Virus record (IMG/VR): IMGVR_UViG_3300028887_000117
Location: 2,497 to 66,496 of that record
Direction: 5' to 3' (one strand)
Length of the DNA stretch: 64,000 bases
From: a virus
Lineage: Duplodnaviria; Caudoviricetes
Shown here: positions 1 through 43,565 of the stretch, in pieces
Layout: every line of letters starts with the position of its first letter
Position numbering within the stretch: the stretch's first letter is position 1
Program-made: the position numbers and the translations under genes
The notes under the pieces: model-generated
Told to the model about the DNA's origin: nothing
What the model saw: only the letters and a program-made list of their open reading frames with translations
The model's database searches: none

Positions 1-34
1 TTTAAAGACCATTAAAGATTAAGGAGATACGCCA

Positions 35-223
35 ATGAACACCGAGACTCTTATGGAAATTGTAAAGAATAGAGCAGATATTAATAACAAGGATGAAAAT
101 AACCCAACAACTCATTCATTCCTATATGAGTTGTATATGGCGCTTGAAAGACTCAAGAAGTATGAGGACTTGATGAAAGAATTAGCAAAGAGCGAAAATA
201 AAAGTGAGGATATAGACCTATGA
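35..223 (+). CDS. hypothetical protein
   Basis: ORF with AAGGAG RBS, TGA stop. Confidence 0.55.
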   Translation: MNTETLMEIVKNRADINNKDENNPTTHSFLYELYMALERLKKYEDLMKELAKSENKSEDIDL

Positions 224-5602: not shown

Positions 5603-5770
5603 ATGGTATTTTTAAGACAGATGCTTATATTGTTTCCGCTTTTTATTGCTATGAGGCTTATAGCGGAAAAGATTTCTAAAATTGATAAAGAAATAAGAGA
5701 TAGAGTAATTTATTACTTTGGAGTTATAGCCTTTTTATTGGGAGGACTATTTAAAATGATAGTGAAGTAA
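5603..5770 (+). CDS. small membrane protein
   Basis: AAGGAG RBS, 55 codons, hydrophobic. Confidence 0.5.
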   Translation: MVFLRQMLILFPLFIAMRLIAEKISKIDKEIRDRVIYYFGVIAFLLGGLFKMIVK

Positions 5771-5775
5771 AAGGT

Positions 5776-5872
5776 TTACGTAGACGCCTTCGGCGGGTGC
5801 CGCCCTCGCGACCTAATGCAAGGGGATCAGATGCTGCCCGCGGCCCTCGCTGGAAGCGTCAAGGTAAACAGA
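5776..5872 (+). repeat. GC-rich dispersed REP-like element (two modules)
   Basis: TTACGTAGACGCCTWCGGCG.G.GCCGC also at 9795-9827 (+) and 37388-37415 (-); GATGCTG..CCTCGCTGGAAGCGTCAAGGTAAACAGA also at 16761-16803. Confidence 0.75.
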
Positions 5873-6046
5873 ACAGGGTAATAAAATATTTGACTTTTTA
5901 AAAAAATTTTATTATAATATATATAGAAAAGTTAAGAGAAATTAAACTTTGAGAAATCAATACCAATAAAATATTTGACTTTTCTAAAAATTTTTGTTAT
6001 AATAAATATAGAAAAGTTGAGAAAGAAAAATTTCTCAACTTAATAT

Positions 6047-6280: not shown

Positions 6281-7049
6281 TGGTGTGTTCTGTCATCATC
6301 AGATGACACTATTGGAAACAATAGAGAGTGCTCTAAGGGAAACCTTAGAAGTAGAAGGTTGCTAATTCGGCGAAGGCGAACACAGAACGCCGAGCAAGGA
6401 TTTTAGGTAGACGGAAGTTTTAGAGTATTTTCTATGTTTTCCTACTTATAATTGAGGTGAGGAAAATGTAGAAATATACAAAAGAATGGTTACAAGAACT
6501 TTGTGCTAGTAGTTATTCTTATGCTGAAGTCTTACGAAAAGCTGGTCGCAAAGTAAGCGGCGGCGCACAACAAACCTTAAAGAAGAAAATCGAAGAATTT
6601 GGAATTGATGTAAGTCATTTTACTGGTCAGCGTTGGCAACAATCACCAAATGCACCAGATAAAACAGGTTCAAGAGAGAAGTATTCTATTGAAGAAGTTT
6701 TTGTAAAAGATAGTCCAGTAACTCAAAAGATAATGAGAGGGTATGTAGAAAGACATAATCTTATACCTTATCGTTGTGATTGTTGTGGCTGTGATGGTCA
6801 TTGGCAAGGAGGAGAAATTTCATTAGAAATTGACCATATTGACGGAGATAATAATAATAATGAATTATCAAATCTTCGTTATTTATGTCCAAATTGTCAC
6901 GCTCTTACTGAAACTTATCGAGGAAAAAATAAGCACCTAAAATCTATGTGTAGAGACTGTACACAACCAACCTAAGTCGTTAAGATATGGTTAAGACTCA
7001 GTCCAGACTACAACACTTTTTAGTGGCTATGGCGACATAGAGTAGTAAG
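6281..7049 (+). mobile_element. group I intron in the tRNA-Leu anticodon
   Basis: U before 5' splice site, terminal G, core-like segments GCTAATTCGGCGAA / AACGCCGAGC / TGTAGAGACT / AAGACTCAGTCC, GAAA-capped peripheral hairpins. Confidence 0.85.
6466..6975 (+). CDS. intron-encoded HNH homing endonuclease (codon 2 is TAG)
   Basis: GAGGTGAGG RBS; M*KYTKEWLQELC...; CDCC..LEIDHIDG..N..L.NLRYLCPNCH. Confidence 0.88.
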
Positions 7050-7180
7050 AAAATCCCTCGGTAGAGATACCGTACGAGTTCAAGTCTCGTCTCGTGCACC
7101 AGCCGACTTGTCAATGTCGATAAACTTGGCTGACTTGTCAATGTCAATAAACTTGGTGAGTGAAGAAGCCACTCGAAAAA

Positions 7181-7609: not shown

Positions 7610-8219
7610 CTTGAAAACTTAATAAAAATTTATTGTAACCTTGTGTAGAGGGCTTAATCAGCCTTGCAAGGGTGCTTTGGAACTGTTTAGTATTCAATAA
7701 TTGGGATACTTATTATTGGGTGCTATCATTGAACTGAAAAGGGATATGAGAAGAGTTAGGAATAATTCAACAAAGAAGAAGTAGCGCAAGTACAATATCA
7801 ACTATAAGGTGAGCTTAGCTGGTTCTCTCCGTAATAGACGCCTCGGTGAGGAATAACCCAACAGACCACGGACTTGCAATCTGTGAGCAAATATTGGGAA
7901 CGCTAAAATAAGGGGAGTTGGTCTACAACGTAAATAGAAATATTTGCGGAACCAGACGGCGGCACGAGTAGCCTAAGACCACACTACATTAGAAAATGAT
8001 GAGTGTTTATTTGGAAAACATTAATATTCTTCTGAATGATAGGTGAAAGTTGGAGGTAGATAAATTCCTCTTAATGCTTTGAGAGTTTTATTCTACGGTA
8101 AGAACTTCGCATCGACGGGTGTTGGGGTCAGACTTATCGTCATTGTGACCGAATAATAACAGTATTGTATGAGTATGGGGATTAAGAAGCCAACAATAAG
8201 TTTTTATTAAGTTTTCAAG
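7610..8219 (+). ncRNA. about 610-nt large structured RNA, ROOL/GOLLD-like
   Basis: own promoter at 7560; 27-bp terminal helix (7610-7636 with 8193-8219); no ORF; next to tRNAs; downstream terminator-like hairpins. Confidence 0.65.
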
Positions 8220-9080: not shown

Positions 9081-9794
9081 ATGATGAAGTTTAATAAGAA
9101 AGATGTAATGGAATTTGTTAGAGAAGCATTGGGAGATAATGCAACTGAAGTTTTAATAGATAGATATACAATAGATGAATGTGATAATCCTTATGATTTT
9201 CCTATTTTTCTTGATAGAGATTGTAAACTTCCTTTATCTTTTAGTGAGGAAGAAGACTTTTACATAGAGAGTGGTTGTAGTAAACTTGTTATTGTCCCTA
9301 AAAATAGAAGTTATGTTATTAAAATCCCTTGGACAGGAGTATATACTAATACTGATGAATACGGAGAGAATGTTGAAGATACTTTTGATTATGAACTTAG
9401 TTATTCTCCTATGGAAGAGGAAATTAATTACTATAATGACGTAGATGAAGATACTCGACAGTATCTTGCAGAGAACGAATTTGTTGGACTTTATAATGAC
9501 AATATTCCTGTATATGTACAGAAAAAAATTAAGCATCTCGGTTGGGGTGCGGCAACTAACACTAGTGTAAGTAACAAGTTTTCTACAAAAGCCAATGTTT
9601 ATAGTCTTGGTATAAAGATTGCGAAGATGATTGTTGAGCAACTCGGATATGATGAGGGTTTTAGAGTTGTTAGAGAACTTGACAGTATTGATGATTTGCA
9701 TAATGGAAATTACGGTTTTGATAAGTATGGGCAGTTTAAAATAATTGATTATGCAGGTTTTAATACTGAGAATTATTTTGCATATAATAATTGA
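9081..9794 (+). CDS. protein-kinase-like fold protein
   Basis: GCSKLV, VIKIP, DDLHNGNYG, IIDYAG motifs. Confidence 0.65.
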   Translation: MMKFNKKDVMEFVREALGDNATEVLIDRYTIDECDNPYDFPIFLDRDCKLPLSFSEEEDFYIESGCSKLVIVPKNRSYVIKIPWTGVYTNTDEYGENVEDTFDYELSYSPMEEEINYYNDVDEDTRQYLAENEFVGLYNDNIPVYVQKKIKHLGWGAATNTSVSNKFSTKANVYSLGIKIAKMIVEQLGYDEGFRVVRELDSIDDLHNGNYGFDKYGQFKIIDYAGFNTENYFAYNN

Positions 9795-9918
9795 TTACGT
9801 AGACGCCTACGGCGGGTGCCGCCCTCGTTACCAATTCCCCCTACATAGGATATGGTTATGGCGTGACAAAAGCTGGGTGGCGGCAGAAAAGCGTAAGCAG
9901 AAAGGTTGAGGAATAGTT

Positions 9919-13017: not shown

Positions 13018-13191
13018 TAACCTTTCGGTTTTGGAAGTCCCTCAAAGGTAAAAGAGTTTAAAACTTCCGTTTTATCTTGATTTTGAAAGTTTTGCAAGAT
13101 ACTACGAGATACAAAATTTTTATTAATTGAATTGCCCCGAAACTCTGCGGAGTGAGGGTAAAAGAGCTGGACGAGTCTGACTCTTTTTAAT

Positions 13192-13303
13192 AACTCTGAG
13201 GTAGTAAATTTCGTGAGGACTACAACCCGAGTGGACGACAAGGAATACAGGTAGCTCCTGTATTGCCTGAGAGATGTGGGAGATACTTACGCCCACCAGA
13301 GTT
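13192..13303 (+). ncRNA. candidate multi-branch structured RNA
   Basis: AACTCTG/CAGAGTT closing helix with three internal hairpins, upstream of terminator. Confidence 0.45.
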
Positions 13304-13405
13304 AAGAAAATTGAGGGGATGTTCCCCTCTTTTCTTTTATTTATTTGACTTTTTTAAAATTTTATAATATAATTATTATAGAAAAAGAAAAGGAGAGGAT
13401 AATAA

Positions 13406-15623: not shown

Positions 15624-16715
15624 ATGCTTGCACTGCAAGATTTTATAATGAAGAATGAGGATTGGAAAGAAAAACTTTCTAACCCTCCTTATTCGCTTAT
15701 AATAAAAGAAAAGGATAATCTTGTCCTTTTTAAATATACTCAGGGAGTATCTGATTTTAATGAGCCTATATGTAATGAAGCGCGTGGAATAATACTTGAA
15801 AAGGGAACTTGGAAAGTAGTAAGAATAGCGTTCAATAAGTTCTTTAATCTTGGTGAAGAGCACGCGGCAGATATAGATTGGGAAACTGCGGTAGCAACTG
15901 AAAAGATGGATGGTTCGCTTATATCTTTCTATTGGTACAATGGAGAGTGGAGAGTTGCTACTAATGGTTGTATAGATGCTGAAGATGCGCCTTGTGACGG
16001 AGCATTTAAGACTTTTAAGGATTTGATAGATAGAGCATTGGAAGATAATCCTATTAACTTTAATAGCCTTAATAAAAATATAACTTATACTTTTGAACTT
16101 TGCACTCCTCATAATCAGCAGGTTGTTGAGTATAAAGATTTTAAACTTTATTTCTTGCTTGCAAGAGATAACCGTACTCTTGAAGAATATATAGATTTTA
16201 AGATTGCGTGGTTGAATGGTTTTGAAATGCCTAAGCTATATCCTATTAAGGGTAATAAGGAAGATTTTAAAAAATTTGTTGAAACTTTTGGCGATGATAA
16301 AGAAGGCATTGTTGTAAAAGACTCTGGTTTTAATAGAGTTAAGATAAAGACTGAAACTTACTTCCAACTTCACCACTGGTTGAACAATGGTAATGTAGGT
16401 AGAAAGAGAATATTTGAACTTTTAGAAACAGGAGAAGATAGCGAGTTTTTAGCTTATTTTCCAAGATATAAAGATGCTTTTAATAATATGAAGAAGGAAA
16501 TTGAAAATGCTAAATATAAGATAGAAATTGTAGAAAAGTTTGTTGCAAGATGGAAAGACAGACATCCTGACGGTACTAAGAAACAGTTTAGTGAGTTTGT
16601 TAATCTAACAACTGAGAAATATCAGTTCTATTTTTATAGAGCATATGATTATGGAAAGATTGAACCGCCAGAAGATATTAATATGCGTATGAAGTTTTAT
16701 AAAATTGAACCGTAA
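15624..16715 (+). CDS. T4 Rnl1-like RNA ligase
   Basis: EARGII, AFNKFFN, TEKMDGSLI, EGIVV, VKIKT nucleotidyltransferase motifs. Confidence 0.85.
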   Translation: MLALQDFIMKNEDWKEKLSNPPYSLIIKEKDNLVLFKYTQGVSDFNEPICNEARGIILEKGTWKVVRIAFNKFFNLGEEHAADIDWETAVATEKMDGSLISFYWYNGEWRVATNGCIDAEDAPCDGAFKTFKDLIDRALEDNPINFNSLNKNITYTFELCTPHNQQVVEYKDFKLYFLLARDNRTLEEYIDFKIAWLNGFEMPKLYPIKGNKEDFKKFVETFGDDKEGIVVKDSGFNRVKIKTETYFQLHHWLNNGNVGRKRIFELLETGEDSEFLAYFPRYKDAFNNMKKEIENAKYKIEIVEKFVARWKDRHPDGTKKQFSEFVNLTTEKYQFYFYRAYDYGKIEPPEDINMRMKFYKIEP

Positions 16716-16830
16716 CGTTGTCGCTCCGCGGGGCCGCACCTTCTATATGAAAGGGGAATTGATGCTGTCGGCGACCCTCGCTGGAAGCGTCAAGGTAAAC
16801 AGATCAGCGACGCGAAGGAGGATTAGAATA

Positions 16831-18173: not shown

Positions 18174-19148
18174 ATGAAGATAATAAATCCAGCATTTTGG
18201 AAACAGCTTCAGGATATAAACGATACAGTAAGAGCAATAAAATCTCCACTGTTGATAGTAATGGTTGGACTCCCTGGAAGTGGGAAAAGCTTCGTTGCAA
18301 AACAGCTCGCAGAAGTTAATGATGATATATCTATTGTTTCCTCTGATGCTATAAGAGAAGAGTTCTATGGCGATGCTAATGACCAGTCTCACAATGATAA
18401 GGTCTTTCAGGTTGTCAATAAAAGAATTAAAGAAGGTCTTATAGCAGAAAAGAAAGTTATTCTTGATGCGACAAATATATCTAAAAAGAGAAGAAAGACT
18501 CTTCTTAGAGATTTAAAATATCCTAAATCAATGGCAATAGTAATGGCAGTTCCAGAATATATCTGCAAAAAGAGAGATGAAGAAAGAGACCGTCACGTAG
18601 GTCCTGATGTTATCAATAGAATGATAAAGAATTGGTGTCCTCCTCATTACACGGAAGGCTTTGATTTTATTTCTATTATTTATGATTATGACAATAGTGC
18701 TAATTTTTATAATCCTGTCCTTGCTCTTGAGAGCGCAGTACAGATAAACCACGATAACCCTCATCATTCTCTTTCAATAGGTGAACATATGCTTAAAGCA
18801 GGAGAGCTTATACAGGAAGAGTTTAAAGCAGGTTGTCCTTTCTATCTTTATGCCGCTGCTCTCCTTCATGATATAGGTAAGCCCTACGTTAAGTCTTATG
18901 GTGAAGATGGTGTAGCTCATTACTACAACCATCAGAACTACGGAAGCTATTTAGGTTTATTTTATGCAGATTATATGAAATTTAGTTTAGAGGAGGCTCT
19001 TGACTTTATCAATATAATCTACTACCATATGGAGCCGCTGTTGTCTTGGAAGAGAAGTGAGAAAGCGCACGCAAAAGCAATAGAAGAACTCGGACATCTT
19101 TATAATGATATAATGGCAGTACATTCAGTCGATATAAAAGCTCATTAA
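18174..19148 (+). CDS. polynucleotide kinase (AAA_33 P-loop) fused to HD domain
   Basis: GLPGSGKS, SSDAIR, ILDATN; HH...EH and LLHDIGK HD motif. Confidence 0.85.
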   Translation: MKIINPAFWKQLQDINDTVRAIKSPLLIVMVGLPGSGKSFVAKQLAEVNDDISIVSSDAIREEFYGDANDQSHNDKVFQVVNKRIKEGLIAEKKVILDATNISKKRRKTLLRDLKYPKSMAIVMAVPEYICKKRDEERDRHVGPDVINRMIKNWCPPHYTEGFDFISIIYDYDNSANFYNPVLALESAVQINHDNPHHSLSIGEHMLKAGELIQEEFKAGCPFYLYAAALLHDIGKPYVKSYGEDGVAHYYNHQNYGSYLGLFYADYMKFSLEEALDFINIIYYHMEPLLSWKRSEKAHAKAIEELGHLYNDIMAVHSVDIKAH

Positions 19149-21076: not shown

Positions 21077-21979
21077 ATGGTACAAAAGAAATATAAAGAT
21101 ATTGAGCGCCTCAAGGACAAGTATGCTGGAGGTTTTACAAAAGGAGAGCATATTACAATAACAGAGAAGATTGACGGCGCTAATGCGTCTATTCGTTGTG
21201 ATGAAGAGGGTAATGTTATTTGTTTCTCTCGTCGTAACGAACTGACACCTTTTAATACGCTTCAGGGTTTTTACGAGTATGTTCAAGCTTGGGATAAAAC
21301 TGGAATTGTTAATACTCTTGGAACTCGCTATATTCTTTTCGGTGAGTGGCTTTGTAAACATACTATTCGTTATCCAGAAGATAGAATGAAGCAGTTCTAT
21401 GTATTTGATGTTTGGGATACAGAGACTGAAGAGTACCTGCCGTGGGAGCGAACAAAGGTTTTTGCAGGAGCACTTGGATTTAAAACTGTTCCATTGTTCT
21501 TTGACGGAGAGTTCACGACTTGGGAAGATGTATATGCTTTTGTTGGTAAGACTGAAATGGATGCCGAGCCTTCTGGAGAAGGAATTGTAGTTAAGTCACA
21601 GGATAGACTTGATAATAAGTCAAGCAGAACTCCAGAGTATGTTAAGATTGTTGCAAAGGAGTTTTCAGAGGTTCATAAGAGCAAAGAGCATAAAGAGATT
21701 GATACTGAAGCTCTTGCGGCAAGAGAAGCTGCAAAGGCTTTGGCTATGACTATTGTAACAGAGAGAAGAGTTGTTAAGGCAATCGAAAAAATGATTGAAG
21801 ATGATATTATTCCTGTTGATTGGGACGAGCATAATCTTGGTGTTATTGCTAAGAATCTTCCTCGTGCAATTTATAATGATTGTGTAAAGGAAGAGCCAGA
21901 AACAGTAGCGCAAATTGAAGATTTTGGAAAGATTTGTGCAGGAATTTCTATGGAGATTGCAAGAGGACTTATAAAATAA
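21077..21979 (+). CDS. Rnl2-like RNA ligase family protein
   Basis: TEKIDGANAS, LFGEW, FYVFDV, EGIVVK motifs. Confidence 0.8.
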   Translation: MVQKKYKDIERLKDKYAGGFTKGEHITITEKIDGANASIRCDEEGNVICFSRRNELTPFNTLQGFYEYVQAWDKTGIVNTLGTRYILFGEWLCKHTIRYPEDRMKQFYVFDVWDTETEEYLPWERTKVFAGALGFKTVPLFFDGEFTTWEDVYAFVGKTEMDAEPSGEGIVVKSQDRLDNKSSRTPEYVKIVAKEFSEVHKSKEHKEIDTEALAAREAAKALAMTIVTERRVVKAIEKMIEDDIIPVDWDEHNLGVIAKNLPRAIYNDCVKEEPETVAQIEDFGKICAGISMEIARGLIK

Positions 21980-26227: not shown

Positions 26228-26303
26228 GGGCTTTTAGTTCAGTTGGGAGAACGCATCCCTTGCAAGGATGAGGTCGTCGGTTCGATTCCGACAAGGTCCA
26301 CCA
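26228..26303 (+). tRNA. tRNA-Ala(TGC)
   Basis: G3-U70, CATCC-CTTGCAA-GGATG arm, CCA. Confidence 0.92.
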
Positions 26304-37070: not shown

Positions 37071-38233
37071 AGGGAGTACGTCGCTAAAGAACTGTTCCGC
37101 GATGGTCACTATATAGCAATGAAGAACTAGACCTATCCCCGGGAACACCTCTCGTTCGTTCCGAAATATAGGAAAAGAATTTATAGGGGAATTAACAAAT
37201 GGGGTTGCGAGTTAAACCGTTGTTTTGGGTTCTTAGACAATTGTTAGTGTTATTAGACAGTTGTTTGTGTCTATTGAACAATTTTATTGTGTTAATACTA
37301 TTTTGTTAGTGTGGCAGCTCGTACACTAAAAGTCAATATTTTAATATAATAATATAATAAGGGGCTTAAAATTTTTCCTATCTAGTCGCGGCTCGCGCCG
37401 AAGGCGTCTACGTAAGCCGATCCCGTAAGGGATTTAAATAAAGGGGTAGGTAGCTCCTATAGTTAAGGGGTTATCCAGCTCCAATGTAAAGGGGTAGGTT
37501 ACCTCGGATTTTATTAGTAAAGGGGTACTAGATTTCGGGGCGTTTACGTTGTTAGATTTGACTTTCTGCGGGCTTCCAATTTCTGGGAAATGTAGTCGTA
37601 CTAAATTTCGAAGGAAAAATGCTATAAATTCGCTATGAAAAATTTTTTAGGAATAGAAATTCTAAAACTCTATTTTGCTTAAGTTCTAGATAGGAAATCG
37701 CCTTCAAATTCGCTAGCTGCTTTGCAGCTCGCAGAATTTTTGGAATTTGTTAAAAATTTTAACTAAATGCCGCCCCGATGCTTCTCCCAGGGACTATGGT
37801 AAAAACTGGAAACGCGCATAAATTAAAGGAAAACTAAAGCAAATCTACTATTTTGCTATTGTTTTAGGAATATTTTATCTAAATTAATAATTTACTTGAA
37901 GGAATTAAAGCAAATTTTCTATAAATTCGCTATTGTTTTGTAATAAATTAAAATTAAATCTCCGATTTAGTTAAAAATTTTAACTAATTTATATAATGTT
38001 TAAAGTTTTTTAAAGTGAAATGCTTGAGTTTTTCTAAAAAATTTGCTATAATATATATAGAAAAGAGAGAGAAAGGAACAAAATAGAGAAGAACGGTCGT
38101 AGAATTAAATGGAAAAGCCATATAAGGTGGGTAAAGTGGACTTGTTTACTTCTCTGTTGTTCCCTAAACGAATTTCTACAATTCATAAACAACTATTTAA
38201 ATATCCAGTGTAACTGGAAGAAAGAGGTACAGT

Positions 38234-42396: not shown

Positions 42397-42640
42397 AAAG
42401 GAGTTGAAAGTTAATGAAAAATGTAAGAGATTAACAGATAATGTCAATCTCTTTTAATTAGTTAAAAATTTTAATTATCAAATAATTGTTAAGATTACGA
42501 CAGTAACTTTATGAATAAGATATTGAGATTGCGATGGTAATATCGGATTGTTCATATTGGATTAACAATTGCAACTATCGGGTTGTTAATAATTCGGCAA
42601 TATTTAAAATTTTTAACTAATTAAAGAAAAAGAAAAGGGG

Positions 42641-43015
42641 TTAATCCCCCTTTTCCTCTACCTGTGCGGCGTTCTTATAAGCAATTGCCCTGTTCTTGCC
42701 GTTCTTGACAGTTTCCTTGACAACAGTACCATTGTCAACAAAAGGCTTAACGAGTGCGGCAATCTTTGGAGAGTTAGCACCTGTATATGCGGCAATCTCT
42801 GCACAAGTGTGTACCTTGCCGTCTGCAAGTAGTGCATTAATCTGTGCAAGCAGTGGTGCATTTACGGCGTCCTTCTTTTCCTTGACCTTTGCGTTCCTTG
42901 CAGAGTTCTTCTTGCCGAGGGCTTCAATCTGCTTTGTTGCATAGTCTTTCAACTCCTGTGCAACATCTGCGGAAACGACTGCCTGAAAAAATTCTCTTTG
43001 TGTCATAGTATTCAC
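42641..43015 (-). CDS. family A protein
   Basis: paralog alignment. Confidence 0.75.
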   Translation of the reverse strand: MNTMTQREFFQAVVSADVAQELKDYATKQIEALGKKNSARNAKVKEKKDAVNAPLLAQINALLADGKVHTCAEIAAYTGANSPKIAALVKPFVDNGTVVKETVKNGKNRAIAYKNAAQVEEKGD

Positions 43016-43175
43016 CTTTCTCCGTTTTAAAGTCTATCGGCTGACTTATAATGTTGTTGTGGATTAGGTTCTTTCCCTTATCTCTGTATATAGTATAACA
43101 TATTTAAGGGAGTTTGTCAATTAACATTCTGTGAAGTTTTTATGAAGTTTTCGTGAATTTGTTAATTGGTTTAAC

Positions 43176-43282
43176 TGGTGGAGAAGATGGGAGTCGCACC
43201 CACTTCGACCGTATTTTTCAACGGCAACCCACGCCCCGACTTACGCCGACGTGCGCCGAGATTCTGACCTCTGCCCTTCCCC
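43176..43282 (-). ncRNA. 107-nt tRNA-like RNA with Ala acceptor identity and no canonical anticodon loop
   Basis: GGGGAAG/CTTCTCC-A-CCA with G3-U70, T-arm GTGGG-TGCGACT-CCCAT, own promoter. Confidence 0.7.
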
Positions 43283-43565
43283 TTATCTTGATTATATTAT
43301 AGCATATATTTTTTGATTTGTCAATAGGTTTTGAGATTTTTTTTATTAACTTTTTATGAATTTGTTTGTTGTGCCGCCCTTCAAAAATTTTGCGAAAGTG
43401 TGAACAACCCGACAGAACAAGGGCGGCACAAGATGAATAAACTATTAATATTGCGATAGTCCCGTCGTGATGTTAATCTCTTGTTCATAATTATAGTGTC
43501 GCATTGTTAATAATCTCGTAATAGTTAAAATTTTTAATTAATTAAAGAAAAAGAAAAGGTTGACA

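Follow-up and report, generated by a model that had tools for sequence, protein, structure and literature searches.

Transfer RNA (tRNA) genes of phages are usually read as codon-usage or anti-nuclease devices, and phage T4 makes, together with its tRNAs, two stable RNAs of about 120–140 nt, species 1 (rnaC) and species 2 (rnaD), whose function is unknown and for which we know of no alanine identity. Among the described systems closest to the RNA considered here is that of the Mycobacterium phage DS6A, which encodes a message-less transfer-messenger RNA (tmRNA) consisting of the tRNA-like domain (TLD) only (tmRNA Website tmID 11587; PMC4131195, PMC11915505), and a molecule similar to it strongly inhibits tmRNA (PMC4131195, PMC11915505). 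In jakobid mitochondria and some plastids, tmRNAs lacking the coding sequence (CDS) occur, which are derived from tmRNA, are about 65 nt long and co-occur with SmpB (PMC11915505). Here, we analyse a 107-nt RNA gene, termed X, in a 64,000-nt stretch of DNA of a virus of the Caudoviricetes (IMG/VR record IMGVR_UViG_3300028887_000117, positions 2,497 to 66,496; the whole stretch is called the window below), which is part of a 66.5-kb record estimated to cover 32% of the genome. X occupies positions 43176–43282, exactly the extent given by the original prediction, which had been made from the letters alone and had left the strand unstated; the gene is on the minus strand (5′ end 43282, 3′ end 43176), with position p of X corresponding to window coordinate 43283−p. 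As judged from its relatives, X is a genuine conserved phage gene and not a decayed tRNA, because it is conserved with compensatory changes, and it is very probably a functional, alanine-type, non-decoding tRNA mimic. The best overall explanation, which we put forward tentatively, is that of a tRNA-shaped, alanine-type mimic acting in trans, with the ribosome-rescue axis as the favoured field of action.

A non-decoding phage mimic of alanine-type tRNA has one published precedent, DS6A, which is also the only published phage TLD-only RNA that we found in the literature, and no description of the family of X was found there. The DS6A TLD (JN698994:28478-28560, 83 nt), used as the positive control, scores 43.2 bits on the tmRNA model RF00023 and folds with an open D loop (CAAUGGUGGUCGAC) and one closing hairpin. 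X has in common with it that it is phage-encoded and has an alanine-type acceptor (G3-U70) and a T arm, with no anticodon and no tag frame, and both RNAs would be expected to take alanine yet not to decode. Unlike the DS6A TLD, X is 107 nt long, has a covarying D-like stem, two more hairpins and an encoded CCA, and gives no match to RF00023. The family of X is outside the tRNA and tmRNA models and is distinct in architecture from the DS6A precedent.

The comparison with the other systems is as follows. X is like tmRNA in the acceptor (G1–G4 with G3-U70, A73 and CCA) and in the T arm adjoining the acceptor 3′ strand, and is unlike it in having no message or tag frame with a resume codon, no pseudoknots, no P2 helix and no single-stranded D loop of the GG..UUCGAC type; the only candidate for a long-range pairing in the body of X is a 3-bp GGC/GYY helix abutting the acceptor. 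X resembles the CDS-less organellar tmRNAs as a conserved tRNA-like RNA without a tag frame that is predicted to accept alanine, and differs from them in its larger body of its own, no SmpB gene having been found in the phage records. It is like T4 rnaC and rnaD in being a small phage RNA, a likeness drawn by description only. X shares its four-arm layout, 7+5 bp stack, alanine acceptor and long extra arm with tRNA-Ala and the class II tRNAs. In its long stem and 4-nt loop, the D-like arm recalls that of tRNA-Sec, from which X differs in having a 7+5 rather than an 8+5 (bacterial) stack and no UCA loop. From canonical tRNA, X differs in the gap between the acceptor and D stems (4 nt as against 2, or else occupied by a 3-bp helix), and most copies also differ in having G55 or an 8-nt T loop.

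From its 5′ end, X begins with GGGGAAG, followed by the 4-nt linker GGCA and a hairpin of 5 bp closed by the loop CAGA. Next come a long helix with irregular pairing and a GUAA cap, and a second 5-bp hairpin, whose 8-nt loop is rich in A. After CGAA there is the T stem (5 bp, loop UGCGACU), and X ends with CUUCUCC, A73 and CCA. Thus the 7-bp acceptor with G3-U70, A73 and the encoded CCA, the T arm with G55, the extended irregular arm and the 5-bp arm before the T arm are all present as the original prediction had it. It had further taken the D-like segment to be unpaired; this segment forms instead a 5-bp stem whose pairing is kept through a double change from G-C to A-U. The whole identity set of alanyl-tRNA synthetase (AlaRS), i.e. 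G3-U70, A73, G2-C71 and G1-C72, is present and invariant. The acceptor/T stack comprises 7+5 bp, with a T loop able to close by U54-A58, and the T loop of one relative (L017) is the canonical UUCAACU. The D-like and T loops switch jointly, being CGGAAA and UUCAACU in L017 and CAGA or CAGAA with UGCGACU or UGCCGACU elsewhere; since this joint change is one event, it gives no more than a hint that an elbow contact between the two loops is kept. The folding energy of X is unremarkable (z = −1.3).

Two assignments of the arms fit the data. In the first, which is that of the original prediction, the central hairpin replaces the anticodon arm and the hairpin at nt 58–75 is a long variable arm. In the second, GGC (nt 8–10) pairs with nt 55–57, the central hairpin is an insertion, and the 58–75 hairpin is at the anticodon-arm position, which is a permissible reading since only 4–5 nt separate it from the T stem. 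The 8–10/55–57 helix is paired in 100% of cases, with one-sided GC/GU changes only, and for that reason this modelled helix is consistent with the alignment but not proven by it. An extended D helix (nt 9–10 with nt 27–28) was rejected, as the relatives do not keep the pairing. Under either assignment, a 5-bp stem bearing a 7-nt loop with U33 is missing from every copy. The loop of the 58–75 hairpin is UGAAAAAU in the window copy and UGAAAGAA in the other seven. The central hairpin is 27–32 nt long across the copies, with loops GUAA, ACCGAAAG, GAUGA and GAUGG and with a covarying stem base; because length, sequence and loop all vary among the copies, it has no conserved loop.

The evidence that X is a conserved gene comes from its relatives. 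Covariance models built on X gave seven further distinct copies, with E-values from 1e-11 to 1e-24. With the models R1 and R2, X was found directly upstream of a homologue of the 124-aa open reading frame (ORF) that follows it in the window, in L017, L018, L019, L025, L028–L032 and L142 (the copies in L028–L032 have the same sequence as that in L025), and its own consensus promoter precedes every cassette-type copy. Scanning IMG/VR with the conserved hairpin motif gave two more distant copies, L149 and L146 (82 bits), the former in a complete 186-kb phage (G416) and the latter in a 94-kb phage (G417). The X-type RNAs are 105–107 nt long, and the window copy is 77–90% identical to the other cassette-type copies. 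In the eight distinct sequences, 98.3% of the 240 pair cells hold standard pairs, as compared with 42–59% when the 3′ partners are slid by 1–3 columns, and the observed covariation score was reached by none of 500 column shuffles. Seven pairs are changed on both sides, and they are spread over the acceptor, D-like, central, 58–75 and T helices (Table 1). By contrast, acceptor pairs 1–5, including G3-U70, together with A73 and CCA, are unchanged in all eight copies. Because pairs 6 and 7 doubly change while G1–G4, G3-U70, A73 and CCA stay fixed, this is the pattern expected if the alanine identity of X is under selection.

In these searches, the X-type RNA was seen only in cattle-gut phage contigs and in the two IMG/VR phage records. 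DNA near-identical to the window is present in bovine gut metagenome runs of two studies, one of which is possibly the source, and a contig from the second study spans X with one difference in 712 bases. A divergent copy was first seen as a contig in run X4. A variant V was rebuilt from the difference tables of a contig; because this variant is approximate, with six contig substitutions not listed, it was left out of the counted alignments. The independent contigs L018 and L142 are 92–93% identical to it.

Other searches returned no further member of the family. Among reference phage genomes, megablast with 12 kb gave no match, and blastn with 251 nt gave only promoter-like AT-rich matches and 31–40 nt T-arm/acceptor ends of tRNA-Ala. 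Exact-pattern scans of IMG/VR for the 3′ end and for the 5′ end of X gave no match, and the sole match of an exact-pattern metagenome scan was an identical copy (L014), which is probably the contig from which the record came. Scans with 17-mers gave three IMG/VR loci and 104 stretches in species-representative genomes, none of which is X: the three loci have no model match at the pattern sites, and of 105 genome matches checked by script only one has CTTCTCC at the right distance, in an unrelated sequence. At eleven loci reached through a 221-aa exonuclease-like neighbour, blastn, nhmmer and R1 found no homologue of X, and the sole weak match there is an ordinary tRNA cluster. No closest relatives were found in IMG/VR through the Rnl1-like ligase. 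In a search for the host, the tmRNA-like 3′ end was found in none of 401 sampled genomes of one Bacillota-type phylum.

The standard detectors do not recognise X. The check proposed with the original prediction, by ARAGORN and by Rfam covariance models against tmRNA and tRNA, leaves X called by neither: ARAGORN calls no tmRNA, and its 28 tRNAs in the window, which are all plus-strand genes located from 1971 to 30950, do not include X; Rfam at its gathering thresholds gives nothing at X. In a permissive Rfam scan, the best match is to tRNA-Sec (RF01852, 16.2 bits, cut-off 47), and X is below the cut-off of 29 of canonical tRNA (RF00005). The model tmRNA_permuted gives 16.1 bits (cut-off 47), for the T arm and the 3′ strand only. 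The Tymo_tRNA-like model gives 13.9 bits (cut-off 40), and X does not qualify as a viral 3′ tRNA-like structure. Two further candidates were rejected. One is a two-piece permuted tmRNA formed with the leader GGGAAAG of the next cassette, as this leader motif is common to all cassettes and the model score is 16 bits; the other is a Y RNA or YrlA, as the ends of X are an acceptor stem with CCA and the record has no TROVE match.

Now consider how X would be expressed. Its GC content is about 60%, that of the surrounding phage fragment about 33%. X is one unit in a minus-strand array of about 35 promoter–gene–terminator cassettes with small genes, an array of the kind used early for host takeover; it is remote from the tRNA clusters and has its own cassette promoter, both as originally predicted. 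The start of X is 13 nt downstream of the −10 hexamer, so that a short leader has to be cleaved off. No terminator-like site was found between 43176 and 43120, and because there is no terminator between X and the next promoter, transcripts of X probably run on into the next cassette, which holds the conserved downstream neighbour of X, the 124-aa winged-helix-like ORF that served as the bait for relatives. In the RNA-Seq run X24, a single contig was found, inside the neighbouring ORF, and none across X; assembled contigs show neither ends nor strand. The run X4 is labelled metatranscriptomic and is probably DNA. Just upstream of the promoter of X, at 43370–43434, there is a long-range inverted repeat (GTGCCGCCCTT ... 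AAGGGCGGCAC), and a similar GTGCCGC/GCGGCAC pair is at the same place in the relatives L015 and L140.

Table 1. Features of X and its surroundings in the window, pairs of X that change on both sides, and genes for RNA repair.
Feature	Position in X (nt)	Window coordinates	Strand	Remark
Promoter of X, TTGACA-17-TGnTATAAT		43296..43324	-	12/12 consensus match, with TG
Acceptor 5′ strand GGGGAAG	1-7	43276..43282	-	pairs with nt 97-103
GGC	8-10	43273..43275	-	possible 3-bp helix with nt 55-57 (G[U/C][U/C]) by RNAalifold
D-like hairpin	12-25	43258..43271	-	5-bp stem (12-16 with 21-25), 4-6 nt loop, CAGA here
Central variable hairpin	26-54	43229..43257	-	GUAA cap in window copy
Conserved hairpin	58-75	43208..43225	-	5-6 bp stem, 8-nt loop
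T arm	80-96	43187..43203	-	loop UGCGACU (G55)
Acceptor 3′ strand CUUCUCC, A73 and encoded CCA		43176..43186	-	read from sequence; ACCA invariant in all copies
Spacer after CCA of X		43121..43175	-	no intrinsic terminator
Next cassette		42628..43120	-	promoter 43120..43092, 124-aa winged-helix-like ORF 43015..42641, terminator 42659..42628
Acceptor pair	6-98			A-U / C-G; doubly changed in IMG/VR copies L149, L146
Acceptor pair	7-97			G-C / U-A; doubly changed in IMG/VR copies L149, L146
D-like pair	12-25			G-C in 5 copies, A-U in 3
Central hairpin base, two pairs				various pair types
58-75 hairpin pair	61-72			G-C / G-U / A-U
T-stem pair	81-95			U-A / C-G / U-G
Rnl1-like RNA ligase		15624-16715
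Kinase-plus-HD-phosphatase protein		18174-19148
Second RNA ligase		21077-21979

The slot upstream of the winged-helix-like ORF is variable among the relatives. In L015, L140 and L143 it contains no RNA. In L016 it is taken by a true tRNA-Lys(UUU) with encoded CCA (L016:5275-5348), located within the 5′ leader of the ORF between promoter and start codon. L027 and L144 (L027:9730-9810, L144:230-310, approximate) have in the same slot a third small RNA family of about 75 nt that ends in CUCUACCA, with two hairpins fully compensated between the copies (GACC/GGUC versus GGCA/UGCC). L023 and L024 have a 98-nt sibling tRNA-like RNA in the same cassette slot (L023:4400-4497, L024:513-610), which keeps G2-C71, G3-U70, G4-C69, A73 and CCA and has an A1-C72 mismatch. 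The arms of this sibling are a D arm with GG, a 6-bp stem whose 8-nt loop is UAAAGACC, and a further arm, AU-rich, with a GUAA cap. It scores 32 bits with model R2 and 14.8 bits with the 3′ part of RF00023. Its T arm and acceptor match those of bona fide IMG/VR tmRNAs (L159:4400-4693, L156:2997-3287), the last 27 nt being identical and six of the seven bases of the acceptor 5′ strand being shared; from this identity, the top half of the sibling is, on the sequence level, copied from tmRNA or a mimic of it. The copies in L149 and L146 have no promoter of their own and are part of a tRNA operon, where tRNA-Leu(AAG) follows after 7 nt, so the function of the X-type RNA does not depend on the cassette or on the ORF that follows it there.

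Two other RNA-like elements were observed on the contigs of relatives. At 300 nt downstream of the X-type RNA of G416 there is a second, unrelated RNA of 120 nt (L149:4898-5017, i.e. G416:C1:5997-6116) with an alanine-type acceptor (GGGGCUU/AGGCUCC-ACCA) and the T loop UGCAAUG (G55). In L004, right after a stop codon (L004:14490-14550, approximate), there is a miniature tRNA-like fold without CCA. Its stem has 7 bp (AAGGUGG/CCACCUU), and it further comprises a small hairpin and GGGG-UGCAAGU-CCCC, an element like a T arm with G55.

The phages that carry X-type RNAs also carry other cargo related to translation. Just upstream of the window, the record (G000) has a tRNA with anticodon CUA, an amber suppressor that ARAGORN labels 'Pyl' (L145:525-596, corresponding to G000:C1:525-596). 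The window contains a normal tRNA-Ala (26228–26303), and its Rnl1-like ligase, kinase-HD phosphatase and second ligase are a tRNA-repair set. The first 60 kb of G416 have, in addition to the X-type RNA, 47 tRNA genes, two of them with anticodon CUA, and beside both tRNA(CUA) genes a tmRNA of 351 nt (107.8 bits, tag ANDFAFAA), the three genes together spanning G416:C1:24252-25294 (L165, L169); G417 has a similar tmRNA. In G416, the full tmRNA and the X-type RNA are 18 kb apart and have different acceptor stems. The link of X to stop-codon read-through that was proposed at the outset thus receives circumstantial support. In the 66-kb record, no match to SmpB, RF-1/ArfB-type, TROVE, FemAB or AlaRS partner genes was found, which says little because the record is about 32% of the genome.

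Several further elements in the window phage were noted. The tRNA(CUA) of the record (G000:C1:525-596) fits an earlier reading that TAG is a sense codon in this phage. At 6985–7104 (plus strand) there is a GC-rich, RNA-like stretch of about 115 nt with the T arm CGAG-UUCAAGU-CUCG and an ACCA end, for which ARAGORN makes no call, and whose long motifs AGUCCAGACUACAACACUUU and AGUAGUAAGAAAAUCC are common to L013:1501-1604, in the tRNA cluster of another phage. A ROOL RNA (7615–8211, 238.7 bits), just after tRNA-Glu genes, and a skipping-rope RNA (13191–13304, 38.7 bits) are both above the Rfam threshold. GC-rich islands at 5754–5884, 9789–9870, 16706–16829 and 37360–37450 have the common motifs ACGTAGACGCC...GGCGGGTGCCGCCCTCG and CCCTCGCTGGAAGCGTCAAGGTAAACAGA.

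Based on these data, we propose the following pathway, with its processing and charging steps drawn from general tRNA biology. RNase P would remove the short leader of X, trimming would expose the encoded CCA end, and the host AlaRS would then charge X with alanine, since for this enzyme an acceptor helix with G3-U70 is enough, even when it is only a minihelix. X would not decode, as none of the copies offers a 7-nt loop with U33. The charged X would thus act in trans, imitating the acceptor/T-arm half of alanyl-tRNA or of tmRNA, and its field of action would be the ribosome-rescue axis (AlaRS, EF-Tu and SmpB-tmRNA) in amber-suppressing phages, X working like the TLD-only tmRNA of DS6A without belonging to that family. 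The rescue axis is favoured because the function of tmRNA needs alanine charging and because a sibling of X copies the top half of tmRNA. It is favoured also because a molecule similar to the DS6A RNA inhibits tmRNA (PMC4131195) and because the carriers suppress amber, two of them having tmRNA. That the rescue system itself is the target of X is nevertheless a doubtful assignment, which we hold less firmly than the pathway as a whole.

Several observations weigh against this proposal. X is accessory, with close relatives having no X or a different RNA in the same slot. It has no single-stranded D loop and no P2 helix of the tmRNA kind, and its own lower part would take up the room that belongs to SmpB on tmRNA. 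None of the records G000, G416 and G417 yielded an SmpB gene, and the complete tmRNA in the latter two sits badly with a simple block of trans-translation. RF00023 gives no match on X at E ≤ 10 and only 12.9 bits on the L149 copy, and other sub-threshold RF00023 matches of 70–90 nt in those genomes score 14–27 bits, several of them being tRNAs called by ARAGORN. Finally, expression, processing and charging of X are predictions only, and all runs were examined as assembled contigs, which reveal neither transcription nor RNA ends.

The main rival explanation, which we regard as unlikely, is that X serves as a decoy, or sponge, which draws off a host defence or toxin directed at tRNA. Made early and in abundance, the RNA would offer the tRNA elbow and the CCA/aminoacyl end and would thereby absorb a nuclease, an acceptor-end modifier or a sensor. 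This would be in line with the position of X in an early host-takeover cassette array, with its presence or absence among close relatives, and with the other ACCA-ending small RNAs or the true tRNA-Lys that the same slot can hold; moreover, the Rnl1-like ligase, the second RNA ligase and the kinase-HD phosphatase of the phage make host tRNA cleavage a live pressure. However, a generic decoy leaves unexplained why neither G3-U70 nor A73 ever varies when adjacent acceptor pairs do. The X-type RNA of G416 and G417 is in a tRNA operon and not in an anti-defence island, and no candidate defence system was identified.

It is also conceivable, and in our view improbable, that X is a true minimal tmRNA which binds SmpB as tmRNA does, titrating it or taking stalled peptides untagged; a minimal tmRNA tRNA-like domain is what the original prediction had supposed. 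The acceptor and T arm do resemble tmRNA 3′ ends, as the tmRNA_permuted match to that part only indicates, the sibling in L023 has a top half common to real tmRNAs and matches the 3′ part of RF00023, and DS6A provides a precedent. The canonical form of this proposal was nevertheless rejected, and the claim does not hold against the control: the DS6A TLD, with its open D loop, is well recognised by RF00023, whereas X has no match there, a D-like stem that covaries and two further hairpins, its body being local hairpins with no P2 helix. Moreover, ARAGORN calls no tmRNA at X, and the two carriers G416 and G417 have complete tmRNAs.

A very unlikely alternative is that X is a non-proteinogenic alanine carrier that feeds a non-ribosomal aminoacyl-transferase acting on the cell wall, lipid or another acceptor. 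Special tRNA-Gly species of staphylococci donate glycine outside the ribosome, such transferases need the acceptor arm only, and alanine identity is kept in X while decoding capacity is absent. Yet the 66-kb record, which is about a third of the genome, gave no match to transferases of the FemAB type, and no candidate partner enzyme was identified.

Still less credence is given to X as an unusual decoder, the 8-nt loop of the 58–75 hairpin reading a four-base or odd codon to insert alanine. Frameshift-suppressor tRNAs do have an 8-nt loop, the position of the hairpin and the conserved loop UGAAAGAA would suit such a role, and the 8-nt loop UAAAGACC of the sibling in L023 is read by ARAGORN as the anticodon 'aaga'. 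If this were so, however, the loop UGAAAAAU of the window copy would alter the codon read; in addition, there is no U at the position of U33, the stem is extendable to 6 bp, leaving a 6-nt loop, and no programmed shift site is known.

Finally, that X is a decaying tRNA or tmRNA remnant, an integration-site fragment or a cis processing signal for the downstream mRNA is hardly credible: standard detectors do reject X and some close relatives are without it, but the seven further copies, contrary to a decayed tRNA absent from relatives, and the eight variants in which every helix is kept through compensatory changes largely refute decay, the promoter and the presence of both acceptor strands rule against an attachment-site fragment, and the downstream ORF, served by a promoter of its own, is expressed in relatives that have no X, the X-type RNA of G416 lying in a tRNA operon far from that ORF.

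We return to the alanine-type mimic acting in trans. An RNA that keeps under selection only the alanine-accepting half of a tRNA points to AlaRS, EF-Tu, the rescue system or a tRNA sensor. Genes of the X type stay unannotated because ARAGORN and Rfam miss them. They occur in large phages with amber-suppressor tRNAs, two of which have a full tmRNA, and because of this company a link between recoding and ribosome rescue is directly testable with a 107-nt RNA. A more far-reaching possibility, to which we assign a low probability, is that recoding phages carry a class of alanine-charged, anticodon-less mimics that enter stalled or paused ribosomes or compete with tmRNA. If this is true, tagging by tmRNA and the ensuing degradation would spare both read-through products and the phage proteins made while amber codons are suppressed, and the phages would possess a tag-free, phage-controlled arm of ribosome rescue built on an RNA body unlike that of tmRNA.

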